A DNA stretch of 64,000 nucleotides from an uncultured delta proteobacterium (lineage in GTDB: Bacteria > Desulfobacterota > Desulfobacteria > Desulfobacterales > JAFDCJ01): the NCBI GenBank assembly GCA_963769935.1, contig CAVYNY010000013.1, forward strand, positions 448,001 through 512,000, given 5' to 3'. Both the position numbers and the translations under genes were made by a program. Below the pieces are notes generated by a model. The model was given only the letters and a program-made list of their open reading frames with translations. It did no database searches and was not told where the DNA came from. Positions 34,184 to 52,556 of the stretch are shown in pieces (the stretch's first letter is position 1; every line of letters starts with the position of its first letter).

Positions 34184-34211
34184 ACGGCTTGCTCCTTAAA
34201 GCGGTCCCAGG

Positions 34212-34568
34212 TCAAACCCTGTCCGGTGCAAACCCTCTGCCTTTTTCCATCAATTCTTTGCGCGGCGGGCTGAAAAGATCGACCAGGATCGTCTCCTCGA
34301 CGTAGTGGGATTCATGGGCCGCCATGGATTCGATCATGTAGGAATCGCCGGGATTCAGCGTCAGGGTCTGGTCCCCTGTTTTAAATTCGATCTTGCCTTT
34401 AACGACATAACCGCACTGCTCGGCGGCGTGGCGCTCCATAGGCCAGGTACAGCCTTTAGCAAATTTGTAGAGCACCATCATCATGTTGTCTCCCATAATG
34501 ACTTTACGGCTCACTTCATCAGAGACAGGTTCCCATTCGATAGCGTCCCAAACAACTTTCTGTGGCAT
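34212..34568 (-). CDS. Cupin domain protein
   Basis: RHAAEQCGYV, GDSY, AHES and DLFSPPR motifs. The likely start is ATG 34568, after GGAGG. Confidence 0.85.
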   Translation of the reverse strand: MPQKVVWDAIEWEPVSDEVSRKVIMGDNMMMVLYKFAKGCTWPMERHAAEQCGYVVKGKIEFKTGDQTLTLNPGDSYMIESMAAHESHYVEETILVDLFSPPRKELMEKGRGFAPDRV

Positions 34569-34674
34569 AATAGGCCTCCTTTCAATGATTAATAAGTAAA
34601 TACATATTCGACCGTAATTAGCTTCAACATTCGGTTTTAAACGTTCGATGTTCAATGTTCAGTTGGTTCGAATT

Positions 34675-35848: not shown

Positions 35849-36424
35849 GTGCTGATTGACGGCAAAAGCTTCGGTGAAAAAGTAAGAGCGCTTCGCATGC
35901 AGCGCGGGCTGACCCTGACCCATCTGGCCGAAAAAACCAGCCGCTCGGTCAGTCTGCTCAGCCAGATCGAAACCGGCAATGTCAGTCCCTCTTTCAGCAG
36001 CATGCAAACCATCGCCGACGCTTTGGAAGTGTCCCTGGCGCAGATCATTTCAGCGGAAAATGCGGCCGAAGGCGGAGATTTCTACCACATCGGTGAATCT
36101 GAACGCAAAGTTCTGATCACCCAGGGGGGGGTTCAGCACCAGCTTTTATCGCGCGGCCTGCCCCTTTCGTTTGAATTCAGCTTTATTGAAGTACCCCCGG
36201 GCGCATCCACCGGTGATCCCCTGTACTCTCACGAGGGTGAAGAATGCGGCGTTCTGCTTGAAGGTGAATTGGTGCTGGAAATCGGCCTGCAGGTATACCA
36301 TTTGAAGCCGGGGGATTCGATTACCATGAAATCCTCCCTGCCGCACAAGCTGTCCAATCCCGGTAATCAAAAAGCCCGGGCTTTATGGGTTAATTCGGTA
36401 CCCTATATTTTTTCGACAAGATGA
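35849..36424 (+). CDS. XRE-family HTH regulator with C-terminal cupin
   Basis: LSQIETGNVSPS HTH and HEGEE...PH cupin motifs. Confidence 0.92.
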   Translation: MLIDGKSFGEKVRALRMQRGLTLTHLAEKTSRSVSLLSQIETGNVSPSFSSMQTIADALEVSLAQIISAENAAEGGDFYHIGESERKVLITQGGVQHQLLSRGLPLSFEFSFIEVPPGASTGDPLYSHEGEECGVLLEGELVLEIGLQVYHLKPGDSITMKSSLPHKLSNPGNQKARALWVNSVPYIFSTR

Positions 36425-36506
36425 TGGGGTAAGAACAAGTGATTATTGGTAATAGTGTCAAAAATCGGTATGATAGCAAACGTCCGTCGGATTTCAAAAG
36501 GGGGTA

Positions 36507-37580
36507 GTGCGCGTGATTCCAAAATCAATGAAGGCCTGCATGCTGACAGGCGTCAACCAGTTCGCCATTCGAGAGATACCCGTCCCAACTCCCGGTCCTT
36601 CCGAAGTTCTTTGCCGGATCAAGGCCATTGCTATTTGTGGAACCGATCCCGAGATCGTCAAAGGCAAGCACCTGAACCGCAACTGGCCCCCTGAATTTCC
36701 GTTCGTATTGGGGCATGAGTGGTCGGGGGAGATCGTCAAATTAGGCGAAGGGGTCAGCGGCTTTATGGTCGGCGACCGTGTGGCCGGGGAGGCTCACAAA
36801 GGCTGCGGCCATTGCGCGAACTGTCTGAAGGGCCAATACACCCTTTGTCTCAACTATGGGAAAGGCGAAACCGGCCATCGCCACTACGGCTTCACCAATC
36901 CCGGCGCCAACTGCGAATACAACGCCTATTCCATCAAGGCCATACGAAAGATCCCGCCCTCCTTGAGCTTTCCCCATGCCGCCCTGCTGGACACTGCCGG
37001 TGTTGCGCTGCACGGCATCAAGCTGATTGGAATCACCCCGGGAGGCACCGTGGCGGTTTTCGGTCCGGGCCCGATCGGCCTGTGTGCGATGCAGATCGCT
37101 AAAGGCTTGGGTGCCAAGAATGTTGTGATGGTCGGCCGCGCACCGAGGTTGTCCGTGGCCAAAGAAATCGGCGCCAATCACGTAATCGATTTTGAAAAGG
37201 AAGATCCGGTGGCCCGCATCATGGAAATTACCCAGGGACTGGGCGCCGACGAAGTCCTGGAATGCTCCGGCGCCGCAGTGACCCCGGGGCAAAGCATCGA
37301 TTGCGTTAAAAAAGGCGGCAAAATCGATCTGATCGGATTCTACGACGACGAGCACGCAGACATTCCGTCGATCACCAAATTGGTGGTAAACGAGATCCTG
37401 ATTACCGGTTCGAGGGCGAACCCGAATGTCTCCGACGAGGTCATCCGGCTCTTCCAGGCGGGCGTGCTGAAAGGCGACAAGGTGGTCTCCCACCGGTTTC
37501 CGCTGGAAAAATACGCCGAGGGTTTCGATACCTTTGTCAACCGCAAAGACGGGGCCATCAAGGTGGTTATCGAGCCATAG
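36507..37580 (+). CDS. Zn-dependent (MDR) polyol/threonine dehydrogenase-like protein, paralog 1
   Basis: CGTD, GHEW, CGHCANC...C and GPGPIG motifs. Confidence 0.92.
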   Translation: MRVIPKSMKACMLTGVNQFAIREIPVPTPGPSEVLCRIKAIAICGTDPEIVKGKHLNRNWPPEFPFVLGHEWSGEIVKLGEGVSGFMVGDRVAGEAHKGCGHCANCLKGQYTLCLNYGKGETGHRHYGFTNPGANCEYNAYSIKAIRKIPPSLSFPHAALLDTAGVALHGIKLIGITPGGTVAVFGPGPIGLCAMQIAKGLGAKNVVMVGRAPRLSVAKEIGANHVIDFEKEDPVARIMEITQGLGADEVLECSGAAVTPGQSIDCVKKGGKIDLIGFYDDEHADIPSITKLVVNEILITGSRANPNVSDEVIRLFQAGVLKGDKVVSHRFPLEKYAEGFDTFVNRKDGAIKVVIEP

Positions 37581-37700
37581 GTGACGGCTTAAAAAAAAGC
37601 CGCTATCGGCGCTGCGCGTTTCCGCCCGGGGCGGATCCGGGGCTGGCTACGATTGAAATGCCGCCCAGGCGCTATTTCAATCTTCTGATAGGAGAGGGGC

Positions 37701-39188
37701 ATGCTTGAATTCAAGGGCATTTCCAAAAACTTCAAAGGCGTCAAGGCCCTCAATAAAGTCTCCTTCTCCATACCCGACGGGGTTATCCACGGGATCGTCG
37801 GCGAAAACGGCGCGGGCAAGAGCACGCTGATGAAAATTTTATCCGGTGTCTACCCGCCGGACAGCGGCCGCATCGAGCTGGACGGCTCCGCCATGGTGTT
37901 CGATACCCCTGAAAAGGCCTACGATGCCGGGGTGAGAATCGTGCATCAGGAACTCAGCCTGATCCGGTCCTTAACCATTGCCCAGAACATGTTTATCCAC
38001 CGGTTTCGGCGGGCTAAGCTCAAATTTATAGATCAGAAGCTCATTGAAGCCGAAGCGGCGGAAATGCTGCGCGAATGGCAAATCGACATCCCGCCGTCAA
38101 CCCTGGTTTCCGAATTGTCCATGGGGACCCGGCAGCTGGTTGAAATCGCCCGCGAGCTGTCGACCGGCGGCCGGATCATCATCCTCGACGAACCCACCTC
38201 GTCGCTGACCTTTAAGGAGATAGACCTGTTGTTCAGCGTGCTGCGCCTGCTGCGCGGCAAGGGATATATCATCATTTTTATTTCCCACCGCCTGAATGAA
38301 GTGATCGACCTGGTCGATCGGATCACCGTCCTGAGAGACGGAGAGGTGGTGGCAACGGCCGAGACCAGGGAATTGGACACGGCTCAGATCATCAACCTGA
38401 TCGCCGGCAGGGACCTGCGCGAGTTGTTTCCCAAAACGTCGGCACCGATCGGCAGTGTGGCGATCGAGGTCAGGAATTTGAGCGGAAAGGGCTTCAAGGA
38501 CATCAGCTTCAAGGTGCACTGGGGAGAAGTTCTGGGCATCGCCGGTCTGGTCGGCTCCGGGCGCAGTGAACTGGTCCGGACCATCTACGGCGTCAACGAG
38601 TGCCGCGGGGGCGAAATCCGTCTTGAAGACACGCCGGTCCGCATCAGATCGCCCAAAGAGGCCATCCAGATGGGAATCAGCCTGCTCAGTGAAGACCGGG
38701 AAGCCGAGGGGATGTTTCCGGATCTGAGCGTCTCAAAGAACCTGATCATACTAAAGATAAGGGAAGTACTGAAGAATTATTTCCTCAGCAAAAGCAAGAT
38801 CGAAGCCAAGGCCGCCCGCCTCGTCCACGAACTCAACATTGTGACCTACGATCAGGAGAAGCAGATCGTATCGGAGCTCTCCGGCGGCAACAAACAGAAG
38901 GTGATTTTGGGAAGACTGACAGGCTCGAAACCCAAAATCCTGCTTCTCGACGAACCGACCCGGGGGGTGGACATCGCCAACAAAACGGAAATTCACAAGA
39001 TCATGGGCCGGTTTTTGAATCAGGGGGGCGCCGTCGTGATGGTGTCCTCGGAGTTGAACGAATTGATCGGCGTCAGCGACAGGATCCTGGTTCTGAATGA
39101 AGGGGAATTCGGAGCCATCTATGAGCGCAACGAATTTGAGAAAGAGGAAATACTGCGATGTATGATGAAAGTGTGCCTGGCCGCCTAG
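37701..39188 (+). CDS. Sugar ABC transporter ATP-binding protein (RbsA/CUT2)
   Basis: GENGAGKST, LDEPT, LSGGNKQKV and DEPTRGVD motifs. Confidence 0.95.
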   Translation: MLEFKGISKNFKGVKALNKVSFSIPDGVIHGIVGENGAGKSTLMKILSGVYPPDSGRIELDGSAMVFDTPEKAYDAGVRIVHQELSLIRSLTIAQNMFIHRFRRAKLKFIDQKLIEAEAAEMLREWQIDIPPSTLVSELSMGTRQLVEIARELSTGGRIIILDEPTSSLTFKEIDLLFSVLRLLRGKGYIIIFISHRLNEVIDLVDRITVLRDGEVVATAETRELDTAQIINLIAGRDLRELFPKTSAPIGSVAIEVRNLSGKGFKDISFKVHWGEVLGIAGLVGSGRSELVRTIYGVNECRGGEIRLEDTPVRIRSPKEAIQMGISLLSEDREAEGMFPDLSVSKNLIILKIREVLKNYFLSKSKIEAKAARLVHELNIVTYDQEKQIVSELSGGNKQKVILGRLTGSKPKILLLDEPTRGVDIANKTEIHKIMGRFLNQGGAVVMVSSELNELIGVSDRILVLNEGEFGAIYERNEFEKEEILRCMMKVCLAA

Positions 39189-40147
39189 CATCCAAAAACA
39201 TATTGGGAGTATCGCTCAATTTCAACAACGTGCAGCGCCTGTTCCTGCTCTCGGCCCTCGTGGTGGTGATCATCAGCATGACGCTGCTGAATCCCCGATT
39301 CCTGTCGTGGGGGAACATCATCAACATCAACCGCCAGATGTCGATCAACCTGATCATAGCCGTGGCAATGACCTACTGCATCATCTCCGGCGGGTTTGAT
39401 CTGTCGGTCGGATCGGTCGGGGCAATGGCCGGCTGTCTGACGGGCATCATCCTGGCATCGACCGGCAACATCCCGCTCGCCATCGCCGCTGGGCTTGCTT
39501 CCGGCGGGATCGTGGGGATCGCCAACGGGTTCGTCATCGCCAAACTGAAGGTCCCGCCCTTTGTGGCTACCTTGGGGACCATGTCGGTGGCGCGCGGCGT
39601 GGCCCTGCTGGTCACCGGCGGGATCATTATCAGCGGCTTCCCGGACAGTTTCAACTTCATCGGAACCGGATTTATATTCGGCATTCCGGTGCCGGTCATC
39701 ATCATGGTAATCGTTGTGGCCATCGGGCATATCGTCCTGTCCAAGACGGAATTCGGGCTGAACGTCTATGCTCTCGGCGGCAATTTCAAGGCATCCCGCC
39801 TGGCTGGGCTTGAAAACGACAAGATGATCATGAAGATTTACACCCTGAGCGGGCTGCTGTCCGCCATGGCCGGAATCATTCTCACGGCGCGCGTCATCTC
39901 AGCCCAGCCCGGGTTGATGGAAACGACGAACCTGGACGTGATTGCGGCCGTCGTCGTAGGCGGTTCATCGCTGGCCGGGGGCAAGGGGTCCATCGGCAAC
40001 ACGATCCTGGGCTCGGTTTTGATGGCGGCCCTGTTCAACGGCTTGAACATCATCGGTATCGGTTACGAATGGCAGCTGGTCGTAATCGGAATCATCGTCA
40101 TCATGGCGGTGGCCCTTGATATGATCTCCAGAAAAAACGAAATTTAA
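39158..40147 (+). CDS. Sugar ABC transporter permease (RbsC-like)
   Basis: GGFDLSVGS, PPFVATLG and IAAVVVGGSSLAGG motifs. The start is uncertain. Confidence 0.93.
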   Translation: MYDESVPGRLASKNILGVSLNFNNVQRLFLLSALVVVIISMTLLNPRFLSWGNIININRQMSINLIIAVAMTYCIISGGFDLSVGSVGAMAGCLTGIILASTGNIPLAIAAGLASGGIVGIANGFVIAKLKVPPFVATLGTMSVARGVALLVTGGIIISGFPDSFNFIGTGFIFGIPVPVIIMVIVVAIGHIVLSKTEFGLNVYALGGNFKASRLAGLENDKMIMKIYTLSGLLSAMAGIILTARVISAQPGLMETTNLDVIAAVVVGGSSLAGGKGSIGNTILGSVLMAALFNGLNIIGIGYEWQLVVIGIIVIMAVALDMISRKNEI

Positions 40148-40277
40148 CCGGTAACAATCTTGGATCCCGATGGATGGTCATCGAGACCAGCGAAAGGATA
40201 TAGTGGCGTGCAGCGGATCGTGGACCCGTTGCCTAATCATATCCAAATAACCCAATCCAATCTTGAAGGAGGAAAAA

Positions 40278-41273
40278 ATGCGTAGATTAAATCTGATGGT
40301 ACTGATCGGCTTGATTGCATTCGCAGTTATCGTATCCATGTCGGCCATGCCGGCTCAGGCCCAGAAAAAAAATGTCGTCATCGGTTCCAGTATGGTTCAA
40401 AAAGACAGCGACTGGTGGGCGGTGATGGGCAAGTTCGTGGAGCAGGCGGCTGAAGCGGAGGGTTTCGAGGTCATCACCCTGTGGGCCGGAGGTGACCAGG
40501 AGAAGCAGATCAAGGATATGGAGGATCTGATCCAGCGCAAGGTCAATGCGATTGTTATGGGCCCGGTGCAGCAGGACGGCAGCATGGTCGCCATTAATGA
40601 GGCCGCCAAAGCCGGGATCCCCGTTATCACGGTGGGCCGCCGGTCGAAGACGGACAAACAGTATGCCGAGGTGTGGGCAAATGAGCCCCAGTTCGGGGTC
40701 GAGCAGGTGACCCAGATCGCCAAGGATTTCCCCAAAGGAGGCAACATAGTCTATTTGTTCGGCCCGGTGGGCGCCGGTTATGCCATCCAGATGTGGGACC
40801 AGGGCGTCGTTCCGACCATGAAGAAACATCCGAACCTTAAAATTCTCCAGAAGTACAGCTCCCCGAGCGACATCGCCTCGGACGGCATGAAGAACGCCGA
40901 AGACGCTATTGTCCGGTACGACAACATCGACATCATCGCCTGCAGCAACGACGGGTTGGCGCTGGGTGCGGTGCGGGCCGTTCAGGCCGCCGGCAAGGCG
41001 GGCAAGATCACCGTCTATGGCGCCGGGGCCACGGAAATGGGTATGCAGGCCATCGCTGACGGCGAGATGCGCTACACGACGATCAAGAGCCAGGCGAAAA
41101 TGGCGCAGATAGCCATGCAAAAAGTGGTGATGGCCATAAACGGCAAGCCGGTCGGCGAAAAGATCAACCTGGTGGCACCGATTGTCGTCACCAAGGAAAA
41201 TGTCCTCACCGTCAGGGACGCGATGTTCGGTGGCACAGTAACCGACCCGGGAACTTTCAAACCCAAAAAGTAG
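40278..41273 (+). CDS. Sugar ABC transporter substrate-binding protein (RbsB-like)
   Basis: Signal peptide (AQA|Q) and Peripla_BP_4 motifs (NDGLALGA); GGAGG RBS. Confidence 0.92.
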   Translation: MRRLNLMVLIGLIAFAVIVSMSAMPAQAQKKNVVIGSSMVQKDSDWWAVMGKFVEQAAEAEGFEVITLWAGGDQEKQIKDMEDLIQRKVNAIVMGPVQQDGSMVAINEAAKAGIPVITVGRRSKTDKQYAEVWANEPQFGVEQVTQIAKDFPKGGNIVYLFGPVGAGYAIQMWDQGVVPTMKKHPNLKILQKYSSPSDIASDGMKNAEDAIVRYDNIDIIACSNDGLALGAVRAVQAAGKAGKITVYGAGATEMGMQAIADGEMRYTTIKSQAKMAQIAMQKVVMAINGKPVGEKINLVAPIVVTKENVLTVRDAMFGGTVTDPGTFKPKK

Positions 41274-41293
41274 CAAGCGCTAAAAGGCAGCCG

Positions 41294-41329
41294 CCGTGAA
41301 ACGGAGCCCGGCAAAGTCCCGTTTCACGG
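41294..41329 (+). terminator. Stem-loop after the SBP gene (terminator or mRNA stabiliser)
   Basis: CCGTGAAACGG...CCGTTTCACGG, an 11-bp perfect inverted repeat with no strong U-tract. Confidence 0.55.
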
Positions 41330-41549
41330 GGAACGCGGAAATAAACGGCAGGCCTTCCTAAATGCCGGGGGCCAGGCCTGCCGGATTTATACATCGTCAT
41401 TGTTCCAGCCGTCGGCGATAGGCGCTGAATGCGGACGCCGTCACGCCGATCGGCCATGCGAAACCACATAAAAGCAATCGCGTGCACCGACGCGCTGTTT
41501 GGATTGTGCGGCAGCAATGCGGTTGCGCTATTTTCGGAGGATGCAAACC

Positions 41550-41945
41550 ATGGGAAAGTCACCTGCAACCAATGCGGACATGCGAAGCACGGTATTCGAT
41601 TATGAATGGAAGGAAGTCGGCGAGGAACGCGGCGGACCCATCCCGGGCATCAAAGAAAAACTGCTGGCGGTCGATCCTGAAACCGGGGCGTATACACGAA
41701 TCGTGATATTCGAACCCGGCTTCAAGTTCAAGAAGGCCTTGCAGCATCCTTTCTGGGAGGAGCTGTTCATGCTGGAAGGCCACCTGATTGATTACGGCAC
41801 CAACACGGTTTACACCAAGGGTTTCTATGCCCTCAGGCCTGCGGGCGTAGTTCATGGACCTTTTGGGACGGACCTGGGATGCACGCTGCTTGAAACGGCC
41901 TGGTACAGCAAGGATTGGTATCTGGAAAAATATAGCCAACCATAA
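41550..41945 (+). CDS. ChrR-like cupin protein
   Basis: HPFWEELFMLEG and RPAGVVHGPF motifs. Confidence 0.85.
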   Translation: MGKSPATNADMRSTVFDYEWKEVGEERGGPIPGIKEKLLAVDPETGAYTRIVIFEPGFKFKKALQHPFWEELFMLEGHLIDYGTNTVYTKGFYALRPAGVVHGPFGTDLGCTLLETAWYSKDWYLEKYSQP

Positions 41946-42032
41946 AATAGTGCTCAAAAGATCAGTTTTAGTAACCTATTAAACGTCCCTATATTGATGA
42001 AACTATGGGCTTGGTAAGGAGACATTGGAAAT

Positions 42033-42386
42033 ATGAAGGTTTATCGAAAAGGCACGGGGGAAAAATACACGCCGTTCAACCATTTTGATATGACAACCCA
42101 GGTCATATTCAATCCGGATACCGGCTGCCCCAAGGTGAACGCCACCCTCACGACACTGAAAAAAGGTTCCGGCAGTAATGATGAAATCCACGAGACCTCG
42201 GATCAGCTTTTGTTTATGATTCAGGGCGCTATGAATGTCTATGCTCACGGCAACCTGCTTGAAACACTGAACACTGGCGATGCCTTGCTGATAAACGCCG
42301 GAGACACCCACGCTGTGAAAAATGAGAAGGACACGGATGCCGTCTTTCTTGCGATAACGGTGCCCCCGCTCGATAAAACGCACTGA
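42033..42386 (+). CDS. Cupin domain protein
   Basis: EIHETSDQ...GD...THAVKN motifs. Confidence 0.85.
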   Translation: MKVYRKGTGEKYTPFNHFDMTTQVIFNPDTGCPKVNATLTTLKKGSGSNDEIHETSDQLLFMIQGAMNVYAHGNLLETLNTGDALLINAGDTHAVKNEKDTDAVFLAITVPPLDKTH

Positions 42387-42447
42387 CATTCCGATCAACC
42401 CGGGAATCCGGGTGAACCAGCAGTACCCCGCGGAGGAGGAAAACGTG

Positions 42448-43536
42448 ATGAGTGAACAGCTGCCAGAAACTATGAACGCGTTGGTCTTAAACGCTCCGGG
42501 AAAGTTTGACATTCAGACGGTGCCGGTGCCCGCACCGGGCCCCTTTGAAGTGCTCTGCCGAATTCGCGCCGTGGCGATCTGCGGCACCGATCCCGAGGTG
42601 ATTGCAGGCGGGTTCCCCGGCTATTGGCCGCCGGCCTACCCCTTTATTCCCGGACATGAATGGGCGGGCGAGATCGTGGCGATCGGCGAGCATGCGCTGG
42701 GATTCCAGGTCGGCGACCGGGTGGCCGGCGAGGCCTGGAAGGGATGCGGCCATTGTTACCGCTGCATCGCGGGGCATTACAACCTATGCGAGAACTACGG
42801 ACGCCCGGATTCCGGGATGCGGCATTATGGTTTCCAAGCCAGCGGCGCCTATGCCCAGTACAATGTCTACTCCATCAAGAGCATTCACCAAATGCAGCCC
42901 CAGGTGTCGTTTCAGGAAGGCGCCCTGGTGGACACCGCGGGGGTCGGGATGCACGGCGTCGAATTGGCCGGAGTCACCCCCGGCGGCGTGGTCGCGGTGA
43001 TCGGTCCCGGTCCGATAGGGATCCTCACCATGCGCACGGCGCGGATCATGGGGGCGAGCAAGGTCATCATGGTCGGCCGGCGCTCCCGCCTGGAAGCCGC
43101 CGGGAGGCTGGGTGCCGACTGCCTGGTGGATTTCGAGAAAGAGGAGCCCGTTGCGGCCGTGCGGGCAGCCGCAGGCGGCCGCCCGGTCGACGAGGTCTTC
43201 GAGTGCTCGGGAGCCGAGGGCACCTTCCGGCAGGCGGTCATGATGGTCAGGGAAGGCGGACGGGTAGCTCTTTTGGGGGTCCCGCCGGCTACGGCCATGG
43301 AGCCGCTGCCCTTCAGGCACATCTGCCGCAACGAAATAGCCATCTTCGGCGTCAAAGCCAATCCGAACGTCAGTGCGAAAACACTGGCATTGATCGCTTC
43401 GGGTCAGCTGGCCGTGAAGGACTTGATCACCCATGTGTTCCCTCTGCAGGAGTTCGGGAATGCGCTGGATACATTCGTCAATCGGCGCGAGGGAGCGGTC
43501 AAGGTCGTTATCGAACCCAATGGACCTGAATCCTGA
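42448..43536 (+). CDS. Zn-dependent (MDR) dehydrogenase, paralog 2
   Basis: Same motifs as 36507..37580; GGAGGAGG RBS before ATG 42448. Confidence 0.92.
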   Translation: MSEQLPETMNALVLNAPGKFDIQTVPVPAPGPFEVLCRIRAVAICGTDPEVIAGGFPGYWPPAYPFIPGHEWAGEIVAIGEHALGFQVGDRVAGEAWKGCGHCYRCIAGHYNLCENYGRPDSGMRHYGFQASGAYAQYNVYSIKSIHQMQPQVSFQEGALVDTAGVGMHGVELAGVTPGGVVAVIGPGPIGILTMRTARIMGASKVIMVGRRSRLEAAGRLGADCLVDFEKEEPVAAVRAAAGGRPVDEVFECSGAEGTFRQAVMMVREGGRVALLGVPPATAMEPLPFRHICRNEIAIFGVKANPNVSAKTLALIASGQLAVKDLITHVFPLQEFGNALDTFVNRREGAVKVVIEPNGPES

Positions 43537-43712
43537 CCCAACCTGCAGCGACGACCCAGCGTGCCTGCGACTGCTTCCAACCCGGGACGCTGATCCGGAC
43601 ATTTCACGGGTGGAGGTGGCGGCAGCCGCAAGGCGTCGGATTATGATGCTTTACCTAAGGTAGGTTGAATGAATTTTATTTTTATGACATGGGCGGGCTA
43701 AGGAGAGCCACG

Positions 43713-44468
43713 ATGATCAACTACACCATTCGGCAGATCCAGACCGGCTGGCAATTTCTGGACAAGGGATTGTACGGCACCTACGGAAAGGGGTATGGCG
43801 AAATCATCGAACACCCCGTGTTCTGCTTCCTGATCGAAGGGGGGGGGCGCAAAATACTCGTTGACACGGGCATGAGCGACACGGAACACTCCAAAAAATA
43901 CCATCACGAAGGCAGGCAGGACCCCGGCCAGGCGATCCACGAGCAGCTTGCCCGGCTCGGGGTCGGCGTCGATGAAATCGAGATCATCATCTTCACGCAT
44001 CTGCACTGGGATCACTGTTACAATGTAAAGAAGTTCCCCCGGGCGCGGCTTTTTGCGAGCGAGATCGAATATCGCTTTGCACTGGACCCCATCCCGTTCT
44101 ATTGGAATTCATACGAAGCGCCGGCCCTCGGAATCGGATGCCCCTTTGACGGTTGCCATTTCAACCTCATCCAGGGGGAGGAGGAAATCGTCGAAGGAAT
44201 CCGCGCCTACCCTACCCCCGGACACAGTCCCGGTCACATGGCCGTATCCGTGCAGACTTTAAATGGGGTGTACTCGCTCATCGGAGACTTGATCCTGCTG
44301 CGGGAGTCGTTGCAGCCCAACACGGAGAAGGGATGGCCTCTGACGCCGCCGGGCCGGTTCTACAACATCGTCGAAGTCTGGCACAGCATGGAGGAGGTCA
44401 TCCGGCGTTCCGATCATATCCTCATGACGCATGATCCCGGGCAACTGAAGCAGGAAATATACCCATGA
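43713..44468 (+). CDS. Metallo-beta-lactamase fold, N-acyl homoserine lactonase-like family
   Basis: VDTG, THLHWDH, TPGHSPGH, GD and HD motifs. Confidence 0.9.
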   Translation: MINYTIRQIQTGWQFLDKGLYGTYGKGYGEIIEHPVFCFLIEGGGRKILVDTGMSDTEHSKKYHHEGRQDPGQAIHEQLARLGVGVDEIEIIIFTHLHWDHCYNVKKFPRARLFASEIEYRFALDPIPFYWNSYEAPALGIGCPFDGCHFNLIQGEEEIVEGIRAYPTPGHSPGHMAVSVQTLNGVYSLIGDLILLRESLQPNTEKGWPLTPPGRFYNIVEVWHSMEEVIRRSDHILMTHDPGQLKQEIYP

Positions 44469-45103
44469 CAGCAACAGGTCGCCGGGGGCAAGGCTCCCGG
44501 CAGAACACAGCGACCCGACGCGTCAAAGACGAGCTGGTGCGATCCGCCCGGCGCGCTTACGAAATCGGCCTTCAGACAGGAGACGGCGGCAACTTGAGCG
44601 GCCGGGTGGCCGGTACGGATCTGGTTGTCATCAAAGCGAGCGGGGTTTCCTTCGGCGAATGCAGGCCGGACAACCTGGTGACCGTCAACCTCCAGGGCGA
44701 AATCGTCCACGGCGAAGCGAAGCCTTCGCGGGAGCTTTTCACTCATCTGGCGGTCTACACGGCGCGGCCGGAGATCCTGGGAATTTGCCACTGTCACGGC
44801 CCCTGGTCCATTGCCTGTGCCGAATTCCATTCCCAGATCCGCTGCATCAGCCTGCATGCCGGATCCAAAATCGGACCGATCCCGGTTCTGAAAGTCGCAG
44901 GACAAGGCGACCTGAAGGTCAAGAAGGCCGTTGAAGCCCTGCTGGCAAAATATCCGGGCTTGAAGGCATTCGTGCAGGCCCGGCACGGGATTTTCGCCAT
45001 GGCGGAATCCGTTACCCGGGCGGAGCACCATGCGGAATTGGTCGAGGAAACGGCGCAGATCGCCTGGCTGGTGGCCATGCGCAAGCTGCCGCGGGTTTCC
45101 TGA
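44465..45103 (+). CDS. Class II aldolase/adducin family protein
   Basis: GGNLS, PSRE, H, HCH and RHG metal motifs. Confidence 0.9.
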   Translation: MTATGRRGQGSRQNTATRRVKDELVRSARRAYEIGLQTGDGGNLSGRVAGTDLVVIKASGVSFGECRPDNLVTVNLQGEIVHGEAKPSRELFTHLAVYTARPEILGICHCHGPWSIACAEFHSQIRCISLHAGSKIGPIPVLKVAGQGDLKVKKAVEALLAKYPGLKAFVQARHGIFAMAESVTRAEHHAELVEETAQIAWLVAMRKLPRVS

Positions 45104-45117
45104 GGAGCTTTTTTTCG

Positions 45118-46398
45118 ATGCCGAAACAAATCGTATTGCTCGGAACGCTAGACACCAAGGGACCGGAGATCCAATTCGCCAAACAGCTGGTTGAACGCCG
45201 GGGGCACGTCGCGGTCGTAATCGATTGCGGCATTATGGGAGAGCCGTATTTCGCTGCGGCGGTCTCGAGACAGGAAGTCGCCGGCGCCGCCGGGACCACC
45301 CTCACGGAAATCATCGCCCGGGGCGACAAGAATGCCGCTATCCGGACGATGACGGCCGGATCAACAGCCATTGTCAAGCGGCTTCACGCAGCCGGCCGGA
45401 TGGATGGAATTCTCGCCCTGGGCGGCGGTCAGGGTACCGTGATGGGAACCGCGGTAATGCAGGCCCTGCCCTTCGGAGTGCCCAAGGTCATGCTGTCGGC
45501 CGTCGCCAACGGCCAGACCGCGTTCGGTCCTTTCGTCGGAACCCGGGACATCACGATCATCCACTCGGTAGCCGACGTCCTGGGGCTGAACATCATCACC
45601 CGGCGAGTCCTGGCTGAAGCGGTGGGCGCCATAACCGGTATGGTTGAGATAGATTTCGATGAACCCGGTTCGGGCCGCCCCGCCATCGCCATGACGACTG
45701 CGGGCGTCACGACGCTCTGTGCCATGCGCGCCCGGGATGTCCTGGATTCCAGGGGCTACGAAGTGATCGCCTTCCATTGCAACGGCATCGGCGCCCAGGC
45801 CATGGAAGAATTGGCCGAAGCCGGGCTGCTCGCCGGCATCCTGGACATCAGCCCGCATGACATCACGGATTATCTCTTCGGGGGCATCTTCCCGGCCTTC
45901 CGGAACCGGATGGAGGCAACCTGCCGGCTGGGGATTCCCCAGGTGGTTGTACCGGGAACCACCGATTTCATTCTGTATGCCGGGATTGACTCCGTGCCGC
46001 CCGAAATGTTGCAGCGCAAATACGTCATCCACAATCCGATCCATACCCACGTGCGCACCAACCATGAGGAAATGGCGGCGGTCGGACGCTTTATCGCCGA
46101 ACGGCTGATCCGCAGCACCGGACCGGCGGAGGTGATCATCCCCAAACGGGGTTTCACGGCGCTCAACACGGCCGGCGGTCCGATGTACGACCCGCAATCG
46201 GACAGCGGTTTTGCGGAGGGCCTTTTAGAGACCCTCGGGCAAGGCGGTGCGCATAAGGTCCGCGTGGAGGAAATCGACCGGCATATCAACGACCCCGAGT
46301 TTGCCGAAGCCCTCGCCCTAAGGATCGATACACTGGTCACGCAGGCGAACCCTTTGCATACACGGAATATACAGGAGCATCATGAACCCCGCCGATAA
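45118..46398 (+). CDS. Tm-1-like ATP-binding domain protein (UPF0261), copy 1
   Basis: GTLDTKGPE, LPFGVPK, SVADVLGLN, FHCNGIG and HINDPEFA motifs. Confidence 0.9.
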   Translation: MPKQIVLLGTLDTKGPEIQFAKQLVERRGHVAVVIDCGIMGEPYFAAAVSRQEVAGAAGTTLTEIIARGDKNAAIRTMTAGSTAIVKRLHAAGRMDGILALGGGQGTVMGTAVMQALPFGVPKVMLSAVANGQTAFGPFVGTRDITIIHSVADVLGLNIITRRVLAEAVGAITGMVEIDFDEPGSGRPAIAMTTAGVTTLCAMRARDVLDSRGYEVIAFHCNGIGAQAMEELAEAGLLAGILDISPHDITDYLFGGIFPAFRNRMEATCRLGIPQVVVPGTTDFILYAGIDSVPPEMLQRKYVIHNPIHTHVRTNHEEMAAVGRFIAERLIRSTGPAEVIIPKRGFTALNTAGGPMYDPQSDSGFAEGLLETLGQGGAHKVRVEEIDRHINDPEFAEALALRIDTLVTQANPLHTRNIQEHHEPRR

Positions 46399-47676
46399 AT
46401 CGGGCTTTTTTGCGGATCGCGCGCGCCTGGACATGGCGCGCTATCTGGTTTTCGACTATCGCTTCGAAACGGCGATTGCGCCCGAGGAAGCCGCCGCGCA
46501 CCTGTGCCAGGAACAATCCACCGCGCAATGGAAGCGGGTCGGGGTGCAGGAGGACCTGCGGGAGCGTTTCGGTGCCAAAGTCATCGATCTGCAGATTGAG
46601 CGCCGGCAGGAGGCCCCCTCATTTCCTTCGGCCGCGCTCGCAGAAGGAGCGGTTGATGTCTGCCGGGTCAAAATCGCCCATCCGCACGGAAATTTCGGCC
46701 CCAAACTGCCGAACATTCTGACGGCCGCCTGCGGCGAGGGCGCTTTTTTTTCGCCGGGGATTTCGGCCATCAAGCTGCTGGACATCGAGTTCCCCGACGC
46801 GTTTCTGGAGAATTTCCAGGGGCCTCAATTCGGGGTCGAGGGTCTGCGCCGCATGCTGCAGGTCTATGATCGACCGCTTTTTTTCGGCGTGATCAAGCCC
46901 AACATCGGCCTGCCGCCGGAGCCGTTTGCCGAGCTCGCCTATCAGGCCTGGCTGGGGGGGTTGGATATCGCCAAAGACGATGAAATGCTGTGCGATGTCG
47001 ACTGGTCGCCGTTACGCAAGAGGGCCCGATTGTTGGGCGCGGCGCGCTTGAAAAGTGAGAAAGAAACCGGAGAAAAGAAAATATACCTGGCGAATATCAC
47101 CGATGAAGTCGACCGGCTGATTGAATTGCACGACATTGCCGTGGCGGCCGGAGCCAATGCCGTGATGGTCAACGGCATGACAACCGGGTTAAGTGCGGTG
47201 CGCATGTTGCGCAAGCATGCCCGGGTACCGCTGGTGGGACATTTCGACTTTATCGCGCCGTTCACTCAAATTCCTTTTTACGGCGTGCATTCAAAATTGG
47301 TCACCAAGCTGCAGCGGCTGGTGGGTTTTGATGCCATTATCATGCCGGGTTTCGGAAACAGGATGAAAACCCCGCAGGATGAAGTATTGGAAAATGTGCA
47401 GGAATGCTTCAAACCCATGGGCCATATCAAAGACACCCTGCCGGTTCCGGCCGGCAGCCAATGGGCCGGCTCCACGGTAAAATTATATCAGCAGCCTGGG
47501 TACGATTGATTTCGGGATTGTGCCGGGCAGGGGTGTTTTCGGCCATCCCATGGGACCCCGAAGGCGGCGCCGCCAGTCTGAGACAGGGTTGGGAATCGGT
47601 TCAAAAGAGTATGACCCTTGAAGAATACGCCAAGGATCATCCGGAGTTAAAGGCGGCGATTGAGGCGTTTTCGTGA
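46382..47676 (+). CDS. rlp: RuBisCO-like protein (form IV RLP, IV-Photo-like); two +1 frameshifts near the 3' end as sequenced
   Basis: [13 protein letters not shown] and [10 protein letters not shown] motifs. Removing one base at about 47495 and one at about 47557 restores [32 protein letters not shown]...HPEL. Confidence 0.92.
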
Positions 47677-47736: not shown

Positions 47737-48968
47737 TTACTTTGCTTCACCCATCACCTCCAACAATTGCTCAAAGGCGACAGTGGCAAATTCGTCATCG
47801 TTGATGTGAGCTTCTACCTCGATGATGGGGATGTCCCGCCGCAGGTTTTTTTTCAATTCCTTCAAAAACACCGGATTACCATCAGGATTCCACAAAGCCA
47901 GACCTTTCTTGTCCTGAGAGCAGAATCCCTGCGCCGGATAACAGGAATTTAACCTTGCCTTTCGCCTTGTTTAATTTTTCAGCAAAAGTTGCAGCGATGA
48001 TTTTCAATTCTTCCACGGTTGTATTTATAAGGGTAATATTCGGATTGTGGTAGTATTTTTGGCGATCATCATATTTTGACTGCAAAGCGTCTTCGCTGCT
48101 CAATACGATGATGTTGGCCGCTCCGGGTGTCACCACGGTCGGGACGCCCATTTCCAGTGCGGCTTCCATTCTGCCGGGCTTGGCGACATGCAGGCCCCCA
48201 AAATTATTGGCAACCAATTCGTTGGTTGAAAAGTCCAGCACACCGGCAAAATATTTTTCAGGGACCAAGGTGTCCATGCAATCACCGCCGGTGCCGTTGG
48301 CATGGAAGGTCAAAACTTCATAGCCGCGTTTTTCGAGCTCAGGTTTTATAACGCTCATGATGGGCTTGGTGGTTGTGCCCAGCATGCTGATGGCGATACT
48401 TTTAGGTTTTTTATCGGATGCCTCCGGTTTTACTTTAACCATTCCCACAATGGCACCCACCGCATTGTTGAAAACTCTTCTGCTGATCGAATTTATACCC
48501 AGGATATCGATAACGGAATGCATGACGGTGGCATCATTGTATCCGATGAGATCACTAAACAGGTGTTTGCCGGAAGCAATCGTGGAAACGGCGATCTTGG
48601 GTACGCCCAGCGGTAAGGCATCCATGGCCGCACGCGCTAATACGGACCCTTCCGCACCGCCGATGGCAATCAGACCCTGGATAGTTCCTTCTTCATAAAG
48701 CTTCTTCACATAAGTCTGTAGGCAATCCCGCATTCTTTCTATTGCGGCCCCCCTGGAGCCGGCATTCGACAAGCTCCTGGATGGTTTTACCTGAATACTC
48801 GACAACCTGGTCGCGGGTAACCTCAGGCTCCAGAAAGACCGGTTTGCCAAGGATGCCCGAATCAACCACCAGAGCGTTGACATGGCAGGATTCTATGCGC
48901 TGCTTCAAGTAGAGTGCTTCTTCTCCTTTGGTATCGCAGGTTGCGATGATTGCAATTGTGTCAGACAT
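47737..48968 (-). pseudogene. Tm-1-like (UPF0261) protein, copy 2; frameshifted as sequenced, possibly intact
   Basis: ATCDTKGEE, LPLGVPK, FHANGTGG and HINDDEFA are spread over three frames, with shifts at about 48765 and 47940. Confidence 0.85.
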
Positions 48969-49039
48969 AGCATGAATCCTCAATGTCCAATCAGATACTC
49001 AATTCCGGACGAACTATTTCGAAATAGGGATACGAACCG

Positions 49040-49765
49040 TTATTCAAATGCGCTAAAATGCCTAAAATTAAATTGACTAAAATAATTCGATGCGCTTAAA
49101 GCGCTAACTCTCGTATTCTTCCAGTTCGGCCAGAAGGTCGTTGAAAAATTCTCGGCGGATCTGATTCCGCCCCTCCGGGCCGCGAATTCTTTGCCGGTCT
49201 TGGTATAAAACGTCAAATTTTTGAAACCGGCCCGCCACTTGACGATGGCATACAGATTTTTATAATCCTGATGGCCCGCCAAACCGCGCTGTCCGAACTC
49301 CACATAAGTCCTCACAACCTGAAGGATACCGATTTTCCCTATCTTTTCCAGCAAATCGGCATCATGGACGACCTTGGCTTCCAGACTGGGCGGCTCGACT
49401 TCAAAACCGGGCATGGCTCCCTTATGGCTCAGGATGCAGTCGGCAATCTTTTTCCTTTCGGCCGCACTCCAATCACCCAGACGGTCCACGCACTTCTCGG
49501 CGCCGATGCGGTGATGGACCGCCGGATCCGGATTATACAAAAAGCCGATATCATGCAGCAGAATCGCCGGCAGTACGATCTGCATGTCGGCCCCCTCGGC
49601 TTCGCCGATCCGGACGGCATTGATCGTGTCCCGGTAGATATGGTCCCAGTTATGAGCGACGAAATCACGGCTCTCAAAGGCGGTTTTGACGCTGTCGTGG
49701 ATCATCTTTATCCGCTTGTCTGCAAGGTATCCCTCAAGTTGCGTGCGTGCCGACATTTCAAACAT
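49040..49765 (-). CDS. HD-domain phosphohydrolase; probable frameshift near the C-terminus
   Basis: HNWDH, LLHDIG, HH, SH and DADLLE motifs. Confidence 0.8.
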   Translation of the reverse strand: MFEMSARTQLEGYLADKRIKMIHDSVKTAFESRDFVAHNWDHIYRDTINAVRIGEAEGADMQIVLPAILLHDIGFLYNPDPAVHHRIGAEKCVDRLGDWSAAERKKIADCILSHKGAMPGFEVEPPSLEAKVVHDADLLEKIGKIGILQVVRTYVEFGQRGLAGHQDYKNLYAIVKWRAGFKNLTFYTKTGKEFAARRGGIRSAENFSTTFWPNWKNTRVSALSASNYFSQFNFRHFSAFE

Positions 49766-49773
49766 CTCCGGAC

Positions 49774-50891
49774 TTAAAGACCTGCCGCCTCTGCAACCAG
49801 ATCCACCAGATTGACTACCTTGATATTATTTATACTCCGGGCAGTCATTGTTTTTTTGAAGGTTTCATCACAGCGCGGACAACCCGAAACCAAAAGGGCA
49901 GCTCCGGTCTCTCTGGCTTCATCGATTCTCAACGCGGCGATTGCTTCTGACACATCTGATCGATGAACCGCCAACATCCCCCTGCCCCGCAACAATTGGC
50001 CCATTGTTTATGAGTCGCCATCTCTTTGAACTCATCATCCAGGATTTTTGAAAGAATAAACCGGGGCGAATCCACATCCTCAAAAAATCTCGCCAGGACG
50101 CAGGGATCGTGATAGGTGGCACCATCAGTAACCTTGCTGATCACAGGTATCTGATTATTCTTCAACCAGTCTGCCATCAGAGCATTGATATGCAGGATCT
50201 TTATTCCCTTAATGTCACCGCCGAATCGTAGATGTTCTTCCCATCAGCATCCTGTAGCTGCGGCCATCCAGAGCGACAACCGTCGAAACTTGGCTGTCTC
50301 TGATCTTTTCTGCAACCAGGCTGATAATTGTTTGGCGCCTTCAAAGTCTCCCAGTTGATATAGCGCCCAACCACTGGCGGGTTCATCCGCAAGTACTTTA
50401 AATGATTTACCGGCCTGATTGAAGAGTTTGCCGGCGGCGATCAGCGTTGGTATTTGAGAATCCCTTGCCGCTCTGCCGCAAAACAGCAGTGTGTCGGCAT
50501 CGGAATCGAGCGCAATCCGGCATGCGGTCAATATCCTTTGCGGATTTTCCCCCTGTACCGGATTCTGGCGCAGACCTTTGGTGTAGGCGATGACTTCATC
50601 CGGTGCCAGGCCCTTTTCAAAGAGACGGGCTCTGGTATCAATCACGAGTTCTTCGTGATCGTAATTACCCACACACCATTGCTGCAGCATGCGGTCATTG
50701 AGGGTGGTATACATGATATCCGCCACATCCTCATCATATCCAAGCAGTCCGTTATCTAAGGCAGATATGATGGCCCCCCGGCCGCGTGGCGTATAGGATT
50801 CTCTGCGTACGACCTGGCCTACCCGGTCGGCACAATGACACATCATGCAAAAACGGCAGGCCCAGATGGTTTCCGTCTCTTTCCTTTTCAC
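49774..50891 (-). pseudogene. (Fe-S)-binding CCG-domain protein (GlpC/HdrD-like); frameshifted as sequenced
   Basis: CRFCMMCHC, PRG, YHDPCVLAR, CCGAGG and SGCPRC are spread over several frames. Confidence 0.82.
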
Positions 50892-51068
50892 TCAAAAACA
50901 TCGCTGTTACCTTTTAAATTAAACGTTCTAATTTACGAATCTACCCGATTGGGATCATTTGTCCAAATTCATTGGAATATGCTTCGAAATCGATATTCGA
51001 AATTCGAATTTTGCCTTGCTCAGCCTTCAGCAGGATTCGGCCTCCCCAAATATGGATAAGATCATCGG

Positions 51069-52514
51069 TTACTTTCGCCTTATAAAACCCAGTTTGCCCG
51101 GATTCATAATTCCGGCCGGATCCAGTGCATCTTTAATTCTTTGCATCGTCGGCCAGGCCGGCCCATACTGTTCTTCCATCAACCAGCCCAGTTTAAAACC
51201 GATCCCATGATGATCGTTCAATACGCCGCCATGTTCAAGGGAAGCACGCGCCGCTTTGCCCCAGATCTCGGTATGCAGCTGCAAGGCTTCATGCGGATCC
51301 TGGGGTGGCTTGGCGATCAGGAAACGATCATAAACCATCACGCCCCACGGAAACCAGTGCGAGAAGTGTGCCATGTAGTCCGTACCCCACTCCTTGAATT
51401 CTTCGGTGATGACCCGTTGCTTGGCTTTGAATATATTGTAGATCTTATCGTAAGTTGCGGTGGTTTCCACAGTCCCGAACATTTCCGGCAGCATCAGACT
51501 GTGGGGTGGGAAATAGAAATCATAGCGATGCTTCCACCAGTGTTCACCGGGTTCCGGCCCCAATTGTTTCCCGTTCAGCTTCGGTACAGATCTCATGGAT
51601 GAGCTGAATTTCAAGATCCACAAACCGCCGGTCACCATCCGATCCTAGCACCATGAAGGCGCCTTTCATATCCAGATCAAGTACCCGTTTTACAACCCGT
51701 TCGCTGGAGCTGGAATCATAAAGCCGAATGACACAAGGATGCAGACGCTGGGTCATGATCCGCCGCCCGGCCTCAAGGCCCTGCCGGACATCTTCAAAAA
51801 TATAGGAGTTAAATCTGCGAACCTCGGGTATTGGATCCAGACGCATGGTAACTTCGGTAATGGTCCCCAGGGTGCCCTCCGAACCGACGAACAACTGCAA
51901 CAGTCCCGGACCGCAGGCATGGTTGGGTACCGGCAGGGTTCGGATTATTTCGCCGGACGCCAGCACAACCTCCATGCTCACGACCATGTCTTCGGCTTTG
52001 CCGTACTTTGGTCGACAAAGTCCCGGATCCCCGGGCGGCAACATACCCGCCCAGGGTCGCCCCGTATTCGGAAGCCGGATAATGGGCCAGGGTGAAACCC
52101 TTTTTGTTCAGGGCCCATTCAAGATGCTGGCCGTTGATTCCCGGTTGGGCGGTAACCGTCAGCGACGCCTCATCGATTTTGACAATCCGGTCCATCTTTT
52201 TCAGATCGAGAATGATGCCGCCGTAAAGCGGAACCACACCGCCTTGGCTGCCGGTGCCGCCGCCGTAAGGAATAACCGGGATCCCGTGCCGGGTGGCCAG
52301 TTTATGAATGCGGGCAACCTCTGCGGCCGATTCCGGGAACACGATAAAATCCGGCTTTTCCAGCGTCTGCCGCCGATCGAATCCACATCTGCGGGACCAG
52401 ATAAAAATCCATGCTGTAGGCCAGACGTTCGGCTTCACGTACGGTGACATCTTCGTATCCGACAATATCCAGCAATTCATTTTTGATGATACCTAACAAC
52501 AGATTTTCGGACAT
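51069..52514 (-). pseudogene. FAD-binding oxidoreductase (VAO/GlcD/alkyl-DHAP synthase-like); frameshifted as sequenced
   Basis: PYGGGTGSQGG, HYPAS, ATLGG, GSEGTLG, HFSH, DHHGIG and DPAGIMNPGK are spread over several frames. Confidence 0.85.
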
Positions 52515-52556
52515 CCACCGACCTTTCTAAAATCGTTTGACTAATTGGTTGCTGCT

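Follow-up and report, generated by a model that had tools for sequence, protein, structure and literature searches.

The subject of this study is a twelve-gene operon ending in a RuBisCO-like protein (RLP), located in a 64,000-nucleotide window (the whole stretch analysed) from the genome of an uncultured delta proteobacterium (contig CAVYNY010000013.1, positions 448,001 to 512,000). The cluster is a real, undescribed variant of sugar-acid catabolism made of non-orthologous parts. We hypothesize, with a probability of roughly 0.5, that it degrades a small sugar lactone to erythrose 4-phosphate and that the RLP does the job of the isomerase LerI. This reading follows from the signature of a DerI-type RpiB partner, the exchange of RLP and LerI between related clusters, the scarcity of LerI in genomes with this type of RLP, the enolisation residues kept in the RLP, the kinase family of the UPF0261 protein, and the analogy with OtnC.

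A first-pass annotation of the same DNA had described twelve co-oriented genes with a tightly coupled end, and had proposed that a sugar, polyol or cyclitol is imported and oxidised, its lactone hydrolysed, and the product cleaved or enolised. Open reading frames combined with Pfam and NCBIfam profile searches recovered all twelve genes on the plus strand (35849-47676), in the order and families described. A conserved catabolic module of this kind, with enediolate chemistry, is supported. The last four genes, encoding a metallo-beta-lactamase-fold (MBL) hydrolase, a class II aldolase-fold enzyme, the UPF0261 protein and the RLP, are translationally coupled, with a 4-bp overlap, a 14-bp gap and a 17-bp overlap in turn; they are referred to below as the core. 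The annotation had noticed the RLP as such, but had missed its membership of the Photo clade, its four-carbon partners (the DerI-type RpiB and the LerI exchange) and the link to a neighbouring convergent gene module.

The RLP and its active site

The RLP reads in three frames in the assembly, owing to two breaks of one base each, near 47493 and 47563. Short-read contigs of close strains do not have the additional base at the first site (two runs, X2 and X5) or at the second (one run, X2); the runs holding the stretch are soil metagenomes. Because these contigs lack the extra bases and several genes neighbouring the RLP are split in the same way, the breaks are most likely assembly errors and not marks of a pseudogene, a reading rejected on the evidence of the same close-strain contigs. 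The RLP is the sole RuBisCO-family gene of the genome (8.0 Mb, 97% complete), and its closest relatives belong to deltaproteobacterial genomes, which hints at the kinship of the host.

By sequence, the protein falls into the Form IV ‘Photo’ clade. Its best solved matches were R. palustris RLP2 and the C. tepidum RLP (E ~1e-155, best 5e-157; next family 2e-40), to which it is 61-62% identical with a TM-score of 0.94 (model pLDDT 84). It shares the signature EQSTAQW/GEG/KPN/KDDE/HF/RM/PGR with these classical members (C. tepidum 1TEL and 1YKW; R. palustris 2QYG), but has HFD and AGSQW where they have HFP and GGSD, and its host is probably non-phototrophic. Phylogeny was inferred from 49 sequences chosen from 186, and from a larger FastTree. 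The window RLP and the classical Photo RLPs formed one clade with a Shimodaira-Hasegawa-like approximate likelihood-ratio (SH-aLRT) support of 100. The phototroph-type RLPs formed their own subclade (SH-aLRT 100), with the window RLP outside it among non-phototroph sequences and fitting no phototroph subclade with yjbQ or lsrF as neighbours. The tree, which has no fixed root inside the clade, suggests that the phototroph RLPs are nested among the other Photo RLPs.

We know of no reaction assigned to Photo-clade RLPs such as that of C. tepidum, for which a 2001 paper reportedly described a link with sulfur metabolism and oxidative stress. According to a 2018 study, RLP2 of R. palustris takes no part in methylthioadenosine metabolism, a trace 1,3-isomerase activity cited from earlier work could not be detected, and the function was still to be found (PMC5893883). 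The consulted parts of three further papers add no function for the Photo clade (PMC13454268, PMC10176493, PMC8914248).

The active-site residues Q49, E119, K172, N174, K198-D-D-E, H287-F288, R327, S359 and G383-R384 are kept, the last motif being taken from orthologs and from the second frame. When the intact ortholog of locus L101 was aligned to 2CWX, the residues that we take to be N123, K177, R295, H327, K334, S379 and G404 of bona fide RuBisCO were replaced by E, N, F, I, R, A and R. The RLP thus keeps the enolisation residues (K172, K198-D-D-E, H287), while the second phosphate site is gone (R295 to F, H327 to I) and several carboxylation residues are lacking. Its highest NCBIfam score was for the OiaX model, at 193 bits against a cut-off of 700; the MtnW models gave 171 against 409 and 140 against 514. 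These low scores agree with the earlier view that the operon matches no characterised RLP pathway.

Conservation of the core and its putative four-carbon partners

Gene neighbourhoods were surveyed in 160 RLP loci, of which 80 were the best among 381 stretches from GTDB and 80 the best among 328 from metagenomes; many of these lie on short contigs, and loci from related genomes do not count as independent. All four core genes occurred within the fetched flank in 31 of the 160 loci, 20 of them with an RpiB, and the exact order MBL-aldolase-UPF0261-RLP was found again in eight; the arrangement is therefore beyond chance. The core recurs across several unrelated bacterial groups, its hosts including Desulfobacterales-type, Spirochaetota and Chloroflexota genomes. 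Among the 38 non-phototroph-type GTDB loci, MBL was present in 25, RpiB in 24, UPF0261 in 18 and the aldolase in 13. This sets the window type apart from the classical Photo RLPs, as lactonase, kinase, aldolase and DerI were found in 0 of 42 yjbQ/lsrF-type GTDB loci (31 yjbQ-type and 11 Chlorobi, all without MBL, RpiB, UPF0261 and aldolase). All five Chloroflexota genomes in which DerI and RLP are fused have the aldolase and their sole UPF0261 gene at the end of the same cluster, ~16 kb off.

The neighbourhood check suggested in the first-pass annotation thus found the gene combination kept elsewhere, with a weakly conserved front half. Across the 160 RLP loci and 20 loci picked by their MBL gene, matches of at least 50% were seen in one locus each for the XRE regulator, each dehydrogenase and the binding protein, in three to four loci for the cupins, and in none for the ABC (ATP-binding cassette) ATPase and permease. 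The importer type varies between clusters (CUT2, CUT1, MFS, branched-chain type, TRAP). Several clusters have no dehydrogenase (L040, L048, L101, L146, L172), which may mean that an oxo-lactone is what enters the cell. The module is rare, with a patchy distribution. None of 400 further genomes from the window's phylum held a Photo-type RLP (14 matches, at 33-37%), and a plasmid search gave no MBL match at 1e-25 and 52 UPF0261 matches, all below 60% identity.

The RpiBs encoded beside the RLP carry S-N-[N/D] where ribose-5-phosphate isomerases have H-N (46/46), and their phosphate site is shortened. Ser likewise stands in for the ring-opening His in PDB 5IFZ, which we take to be Brucella EryI, and in 3QD5. 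A change of this His has been tied to shorter substrates (PMC3212906). Ten RpiB-RLP gene fusions were observed, and the DerI model gave the top or second RpiB-type score for all five RLP-linked RpiBs tested. The window genome itself has a DerI-type gene with the same Ser signature on contig C20 (380773-381210), 78-80% identical to the RLP-linked ones. Chlorobi RpiBs were canonical (2/2), and no RpiB was found in 3/3 purple bacteria. The DerI-type partner is shared with the tetritol/erythrulose system of LerI (EryH) and DerI (EryI) in Brucella and Mycobacterium smegmatis, and a LerI-type TIM is used by the same lactonase-kinase clusters when they are RLP-free. The window differs from that system in having a RuBisCO fold instead of a TIM, a lactone entry, and an operon without EryA/EryB/EryC or LerK.

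The C20 DerI gene has DhaK/DhaL, two TIM-barrel proteins and a tripartite transporter as neighbours. Its cluster (G000:C20:378670-387678, locus L178) comprises GntR, a tripartite tricarboxylate transporter, two xylose-isomerase-like barrels, DerI, DhaK and DhaL, and is a candidate for a second route to erythrose 4-phosphate in this genome.

The exchange with LerI was seen in loci picked by their MBL gene, which were present in 17 of 400 other Anaerolineae genomes (19 loci, five of DerI type). The DerI-type loci carry a Photo-type RLP in G1040 and G1096, and a TIM together with a Hyi/OtnI-like enzyme in G1025 and G1195 (two copies). Within one order of 34 genomes, G1096 has the arrangement DerI-MBL-UPF0261-RLP. 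G1574 repeats this layout, with a 70% RLP at the edge of another contig and no LerI. The clusters of G1025 and G1195 consist of TIM, DerI, MBL, the Hyi/OtnI-like enzyme and UPF0261, and no RuBisCO-family match was found in either genome. The TIM of these RLP-free clusters is of LerI type, as its best solved match was the L-erythrulose-1-phosphate isomerase 11EF (248 bits, next 190) and it carries the GTGWKMN and GRAAW motifs. G1025 and G1096 are syntenic, including a common upstream TIM-barrel gene (77%), and the G1195 cluster mirrors that of the Phototrophicaceae, except that its DerI has a TIM alongside where theirs is fused to an RLP, and its kinase has Hyi alongside where theirs has the aldolase.

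Of the 28 genomes searched that carry a Photo-type RLP of this group, 27 yielded no LerI-type TIM (best TIM match 37-44%, none in two; motifs checked for 20); the genomes are mostly incomplete and include non-independent kin. The TIM located 3' of the RLP in L004 and L110 was considered as LerI and ruled out, not being of LerI type. Further RLP-free clusters turned up in none of 350 genomes from the window's class, in none of 340 sampled from Chloroflexota and in 2 of 400 Spirochaetota. Because related clusters carry a LerI-type enzyme instead, the RLP is predicted to rearrange a four-carbon sugar phosphate.

The exchange can also be read differently, with the RLP as a decarboxylase of a phosphorylated 3-oxo acid that would release CO2 and protonate C2 to give D-erythrulose 4-phosphate. 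It would then replace both Hyi and LerI, and the aldolase-fold enzyme would serve a side branch, e.g. from four-carbon acids to dihydroxyacetone phosphate (DHAP). OiaX decarboxylates a phosphorylated 3-oxo acid, and its model is the one scoring best against the RLP, although far below the cut-off. In the syntenic pair G1096 (L222) and G1025 (L225), the RLP stands in place of both the TIM and the Hyi-like gene, and four loci with MBL-UPF0261-DerI-RLP (L016, L136, L137, L220) have no orthologous aldolase in the fetched stretch. The longer Chloroflexota clusters, however, swap two genes for two (aldolase or Hyi by the kinase, TIM or RLP by DerI), and we regard a decarboxylating RLP as unlikely.

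Proposed pathway and its alternatives

In the route that we propose, the ABC importer would take up a sugar, which the Zn-dehydrogenases would oxidise to the lactone and, as the acid, to a 2- or 3-oxo acid; dehydrogenase-free clusters would import the oxo-lactone directly. The lactone would be opened by the MBL hydrolase and the product phosphorylated by the UPF0261 protein, after which the class II aldolase-fold enzyme would remove CO2 in an OtnC-like manner, leaving an erythrulose phosphate. The phosphate of this intermediate would be held in the P1 site of the RLP, with Mg2+ on carbamylated Lys198, Asp200 and Glu201, together with Lys172 and His287, and a proton shift via the C2-C3 enediolate would give D-erythrulose 4-phosphate. 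The DerI-type isomerase encoded on contig C20 would then form erythrose 4-phosphate, which would enter the pentose phosphate pathway.

LerI and DerI are reported to convert L-erythrulose 1-phosphate to erythrose 4-phosphate (PMC10733421, PMC5992420). The LerI step would amount to a proton shift through a C2-C3 enediolate beside a terminal phosphate, and the residues kept in the RLP would support such chemistry. For the preceding steps, it has been described that OtnC decarboxylates longer phosphorylated 3-oxo acids, that D-ribonate passes through 2-oxo and 3-oxo acids to D-erythrulose 4-phosphate, that an apionate route likewise ends in EryH/EryI, and that five-carbon acids are linked to erythrulose phosphate with LerI/DerI (PMC12994016, PMC13753588). 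A lactonase and a kinase combined with a Hyi-like isomerase or an aldolase-fold decarboxylase would suit the loss of CO2 from a five-carbon oxo-acid. As the substrate, L-pentonolactones, erythroascorbate and apionate-type acids come into question. Some clusters (L032, L123, L133, L134) also have a lactate-racemase homolog and a GlcD-like oxidase, which point to 2-hydroxy acids. No ligand could be inferred for the dehydrogenases and the binding protein, which have no close solved relatives (binding protein best E 1e-29). A literature search, beyond whose reach most subscription journals lay, turned up no paper that describes this set of genes or assigns erythrulose-phosphate isomerase activity to an RLP.

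The MBL hydrolase has invariant THLHWDH, GHS.GH and GD motifs and scores below the curated cut-offs for AiiA (81 against 375) and 4-pyridoxolactonase (75 against 325); it is predicted to be a sugar lactonase. The aldolase-fold enzyme keeps the catalytic Glu, three metal-binding His and the GN.S motif, and also scores below the cut-offs (OtnC 93 against 250, AraD 85 against 257, FucA 80 against 264, MtnB 63 against 137). It occupies the position that the Hyi/OtnI-like enzyme has in RLP-free clusters, and is predicted to be a decarboxylase of a phosphorylated oxo-acid. The ESM Atlas returned only generic family names for both proteins.

The UPF0261 protein belongs to the family of MarK, an ATP-dependent kinase and the first member with a demonstrated activity (PMC12624787). 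It is a full-length homolog of MarK 9MPY (E 7.5e-64) and of tomato Tm-1, and has the two UPF0261 domains as well as the ATP motif D-T-K; all aligned homologs with a recovered N-terminus carry DTK or NTK. Four of seven MarK pocket residues are identical (G195, H219, F283 and H304 kept; T196, I285 and H348 changed). The protein is predicted to be an ATP-dependent kinase. The first-pass annotation had stated that the operon has no kinase, which is probably wrong given this family and the kept ATP motif; the DUF1537 and FGGY kinases that it had named are absent from the twelve genes. The window protein differs from MarK in its sugar-acid context, in the changed His348 and Thr196, and in the absence of acetovanillone genes.

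The kept pocket residues could also suit the anaerobic breakdown of an aromatic or heteroaromatic enol (e.g. vitamin B6-like), in which a phenolic hydroxyl would be the target of the kinase, as it is for MarK, and the RLP would come in at a late stage, after ring opening. The MBL hydrolase resembles 4-pyridoxolactonase, and sister clusters of the URO-D type hold an enzyme similar to FHMPC dehydrogenase (279 bits, under the cut-off). This idea is very unlikely to be correct, as G195 and H219 are kept in nearly all aligned UPF0261 paralogs, the His348 of MarK is lost, and the sugar-type importers, DerI, LerI and SorC regulators indicate sugar phosphates.

Several known routes resemble the proposed one. 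The four- and five-carbon sugar-acid routes of Ltn2D/OtnI/OtnK/OtnC and, for D-ribonate, Rib2D/OrnI/DerK have the logic of oxidation, phosphorylation and class II aldolase-fold decarboxylation in common with it, and a Hyi/OtnI-like enzyme occurs in sister clusters of the window. The window, in contrast, has UPF0261 rather than a DUF1537 or DhaK kinase, an aldolase with a low OtnC score, and an RLP. The oxidative D-apiose route of OiaX has an RLP, a lactonase and an erythrulose-phosphate end, as proposed here, whereas the window RLP falls in a different clade, ApnO and OiaK are absent, and DUF1537 occurs in 1 of 160 loci. Known pathways with OiaX need LerI, while genomes with a Photo-type RLP are mostly without it. 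One of the characterised pathways (apiose, tetronate, hamamelose, methionine salvage) with diverged orthologs would offer the same fold families, and the apionate route too ends in LerI and DerI. Every enzyme, however, scores under the curated cut-offs, R. palustris RLP2 was shown to play no part in methylthioadenosine metabolism (PMC5893883), and ApnO, DUF1537, FGGY, MtnK and MtnA are absent among the twelve genes (mtnK and mtnA were not searched genome-wide), which leaves such a pathway highly improbable.

A number of observations weigh against the RLP acting in the place of LerI. The five tested RpiBs scored 124-196 bits, below the DerI cut-off of 240 (NCBIfam NF051858), and the DerI gene of the window genome lies outside the operon, in its own cluster with DhaK/DhaL. 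An RpiB-family match was missing in two of five genomes searched, G413 with the closest GTDB RLP (L003, 81%) and G414, the complete chromosome of L004 being one of the two; the RLPs of L003 and L004 therefore cannot feed DerI. The RLP neighbours in G413 and G414 are either LsrF with an SDR, or a set of PEP-hydrolase-like barrels with an FMN reductase, TIM and transketolase. L098 and L100, the nearest relatives from metagenomes, have genes for creatininase, FAD oxidase and CCG protein beside the RLP. The exchange with LerI concerns two against two incomplete genomes of one order, and RLP, DerI and a LerI-type TIM coexist in G415. G759 has aldolase-MBL-UPF0261 in a genome without RLP, with no DerI or TIM within 10 kb, and 11 of the 19 MBL-picked Anaerolineae loci combine the MBL with two UPF0261 proteins, URO-D proteins and an RLP of another clade. 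The core of G1096 has no adjoining aldolase or Hyi, so the decarboxylation step may not need its own enzyme. RuBisCO-type stereochemistry would favour D- over L-erythrulose 1-phosphate. Given the varied neighbourhoods, the RLP serves several modules, and it may have substrates other than erythrulose phosphate. Finally, phenols are the only substrates reported for MarK in the consulted parts of its description (PMC12624787).

The RpiB missing from two RLP genomes is also in keeping with a vitamin C-type (reductone) or other sugar-lactone route ending in DHAP, for which the four core genes of the window would need no DerI. Here the RLP would decarboxylate or tautomerise a ketose-1-phosphate precursor, the aldolase would yield DHAP and a short aldehyde, and DerI would be incidental or part of another branch. 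The core adjoins a full ula-type ascorbate cluster in five related loci (L025, L037, L038, L060, L146), which are close kin, and the Chlorobi RLP is paired with an LsrF thiolase (59% to E. coli LsrF) while LsrG is missing in 3/3 genomes. Such a route leaves the DerI fusions, the 46/46 short-chain RpiBs and the LerI exchange without explanation, and seems rather improbable.

The sugar-lactone route to erythrose 4-phosphate can be extended to the clade as a whole, in a doubtful but conceivable form. Photo-clade RLPs would then be phosphate-anchored C2/C3 ketol isomerases, a RuBisCO-fold counterpart of triosephosphate isomerase, replacing LerI in an undescribed route of non-phototrophic anaerobes, where UPF0261 would phosphorylate a five-carbon vitamin C-like lactone on the way to erythrose 4-phosphate, and LsrG before LsrF in green sulfur bacteria. 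The phototroph enzymes would be a derived branch of a sugar-catabolic family.

Gene layout, other loci and significance

The genes of the operon and of the convergent module are listed in Table 1. Orthologs of the XRE-cupin regulator adjoin the RLP in L112 (68%) and L104 (85% over a fragment). The two dehydrogenases are 51% identical to each other; the first, predicted to oxidise a sugar or sugar acid, scores under every NCBIfam cut-off, and the second has a 72% ortholog in L112, immediately 5' of MBL-UPF0261-RLP and with DerI close by. In other RLP loci, the binding protein has a 59% ortholog (L133), Cupin_7 has 80% orthologs (L101, L032, L133) and the Cupin_2 protein has 65-75% orthologs (four loci). 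A promoter and terminator scan gave nothing exceeding shuffled sequence.

Table 1. Genes of the RLP operon and of the adjoining convergent module in the window
Feature	Position	Strand	Evidence
XRE-cupin transcriptional regulator	35849..36424	+	Pfam HTH + Cupin_2
Zn-dependent dehydrogenase 1	36507..37580 (alternative start 36528)	+	ADH_N/ADH_zinc_N
CUT2 sugar ABC ATPase	37701..39188	+	profile matches
CUT2 sugar ABC permease	39158..40147	+	profile matches
CUT2 sugar-binding protein	40278..41273	+	Peripla_BP_4
ChrR-like cupin (Cupin_7)	41550..41945	+	Pfam
Cupin_2 protein	42033..42386	+	Pfam
Zn-dependent dehydrogenase 2	42448..43536	+	Pfam + NCBIfam profiles
MBL-fold hydrolase, acyl-homoserine lactone (AHL)/4-pyridoxolactonase group (core)	43713..44468	+	metal motifs
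Class II aldolase-fold enzyme (core)	44465..45103	+	catalytic/metal residues
UPF0261 (Tm-1/MarK family) protein (core)	45118..46398	+	best PDB match MarK 9MPY
Photo-clade RLP (core)	46382..47676	+	PDB match, tree, active-site signature
Second UPF0261 protein, split in assembly	47746..49013	-	36% identical to first UPF0261
HD phosphohydrolase, CCG Fe-S protein, FAD-linked oxidase, creatininase-family hydrolase	49040..53420	-	last three split in assembly
DeoR regulator, divergent from convergent module	53780..54496	+	80% ortholog in L100

Other genomes show a link between the convergent module (47746-54496) and the same RLP. The second UPF0261 protein has an 82% ortholog near the RLP in L106, and its break near 47942 is absent in two runs (X1, X2). 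The genes for creatininase, FAD oxidase and CCG protein stand immediately 5' of the RLP on the same strand in L098 and L100, and are present also in L006.

Further genes of the window have relatives near RLPs. The region 5' of the regulator (32919-35565) holds a 6-phosphogluconolactonase-like gene, a cupin and an EamA transporter; the cupin has 43-47% relatives in Desulfobacterales RLP loci, and its two companions were seen in no locus. A ComB-family phosphatase (26279-26977, minus strand) is 82% identical to one near the RLP in L125, and ComB is recurrent near these RLPs. At 54700-57452 (minus strand) lie a split radical SAM gene, similar to one in RLP locus L006, and a second class II aldolase (25% to that of the operon). 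Elsewhere in the genome, an inverted duplicate of CCG-lsrF-Zn dehydrogenase at a contig end (G000:C16:383000-392200, L179) is 70-86% identical to genes 5' of the RLP in L003, and may be an assembly artefact.

Other RLP loci had different surroundings. The arrangement xseB-ispA-yjbQ-RLP was seen in L008 (8429-11296), L011 (145-3180) and alphaproteobacterial loci (e.g. L054), where yjbQ and RLP presumably stand at the usual position of dxs. Other loci have dxs immediately 5' of these genes, and the Chromatiaceae have yjbQ-RLP-idi downstream of the puf genes. This suggests a link of the yjbQ-type RLPs to isoprenoids. In Anaerolineae, a conserved operon GntR-MBL-UPF0261-URO-D-(aldolase)-UPF0261-URO-D with an RLP of another clade (L221, L224, L226, L228-L233, L237), behind which genes for a 3HCDH-family dehydrogenase and a beta-keto acid cleavage enzyme often lie, is apparently a separate undescribed pathway. 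Six loci (L007, L024, L110, L116, L117, L125) have two to three tandem phosphoenolpyruvate (PEP)-hydrolase-like TIM barrels, an FMN reductase and the RLP, with a SorC regulator, UPF0261 and ComB close by and no lactonase. In L036 (1921-6537), a xylose/rhamnose-isomerase-like barrel, a DUF1537 kinase and a class II fructose-bisphosphate aldolase precede the RLP in place of the usual core. The sequence of L005 (3.6 kb, labelled Methanoregula) groups with Desulfobacterales sequences, a possible misbinning.

The window RLP, as a 62%-identical enzyme with the same catalytic residues, ties the C. tepidum RLP to a specific and cheap test, namely the replacement of LerI. A working E. coli selection for LerI function has been described (PMC10733421). 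If the RLP does take the place of LerI, this would be a new reaction for the RuBisCO superfamily, a second substrate class for UPF0261 kinases and a new route for sugar acids in anaerobes of wetlands and sediments, and it would provide an alternative isomerase for the synthetic erythrulose monophosphate cycle. Should the broader reading of Photo-clade RLPs as ketol isomerases also be true, the C. tepidum RLP would gain its long-missing reaction.

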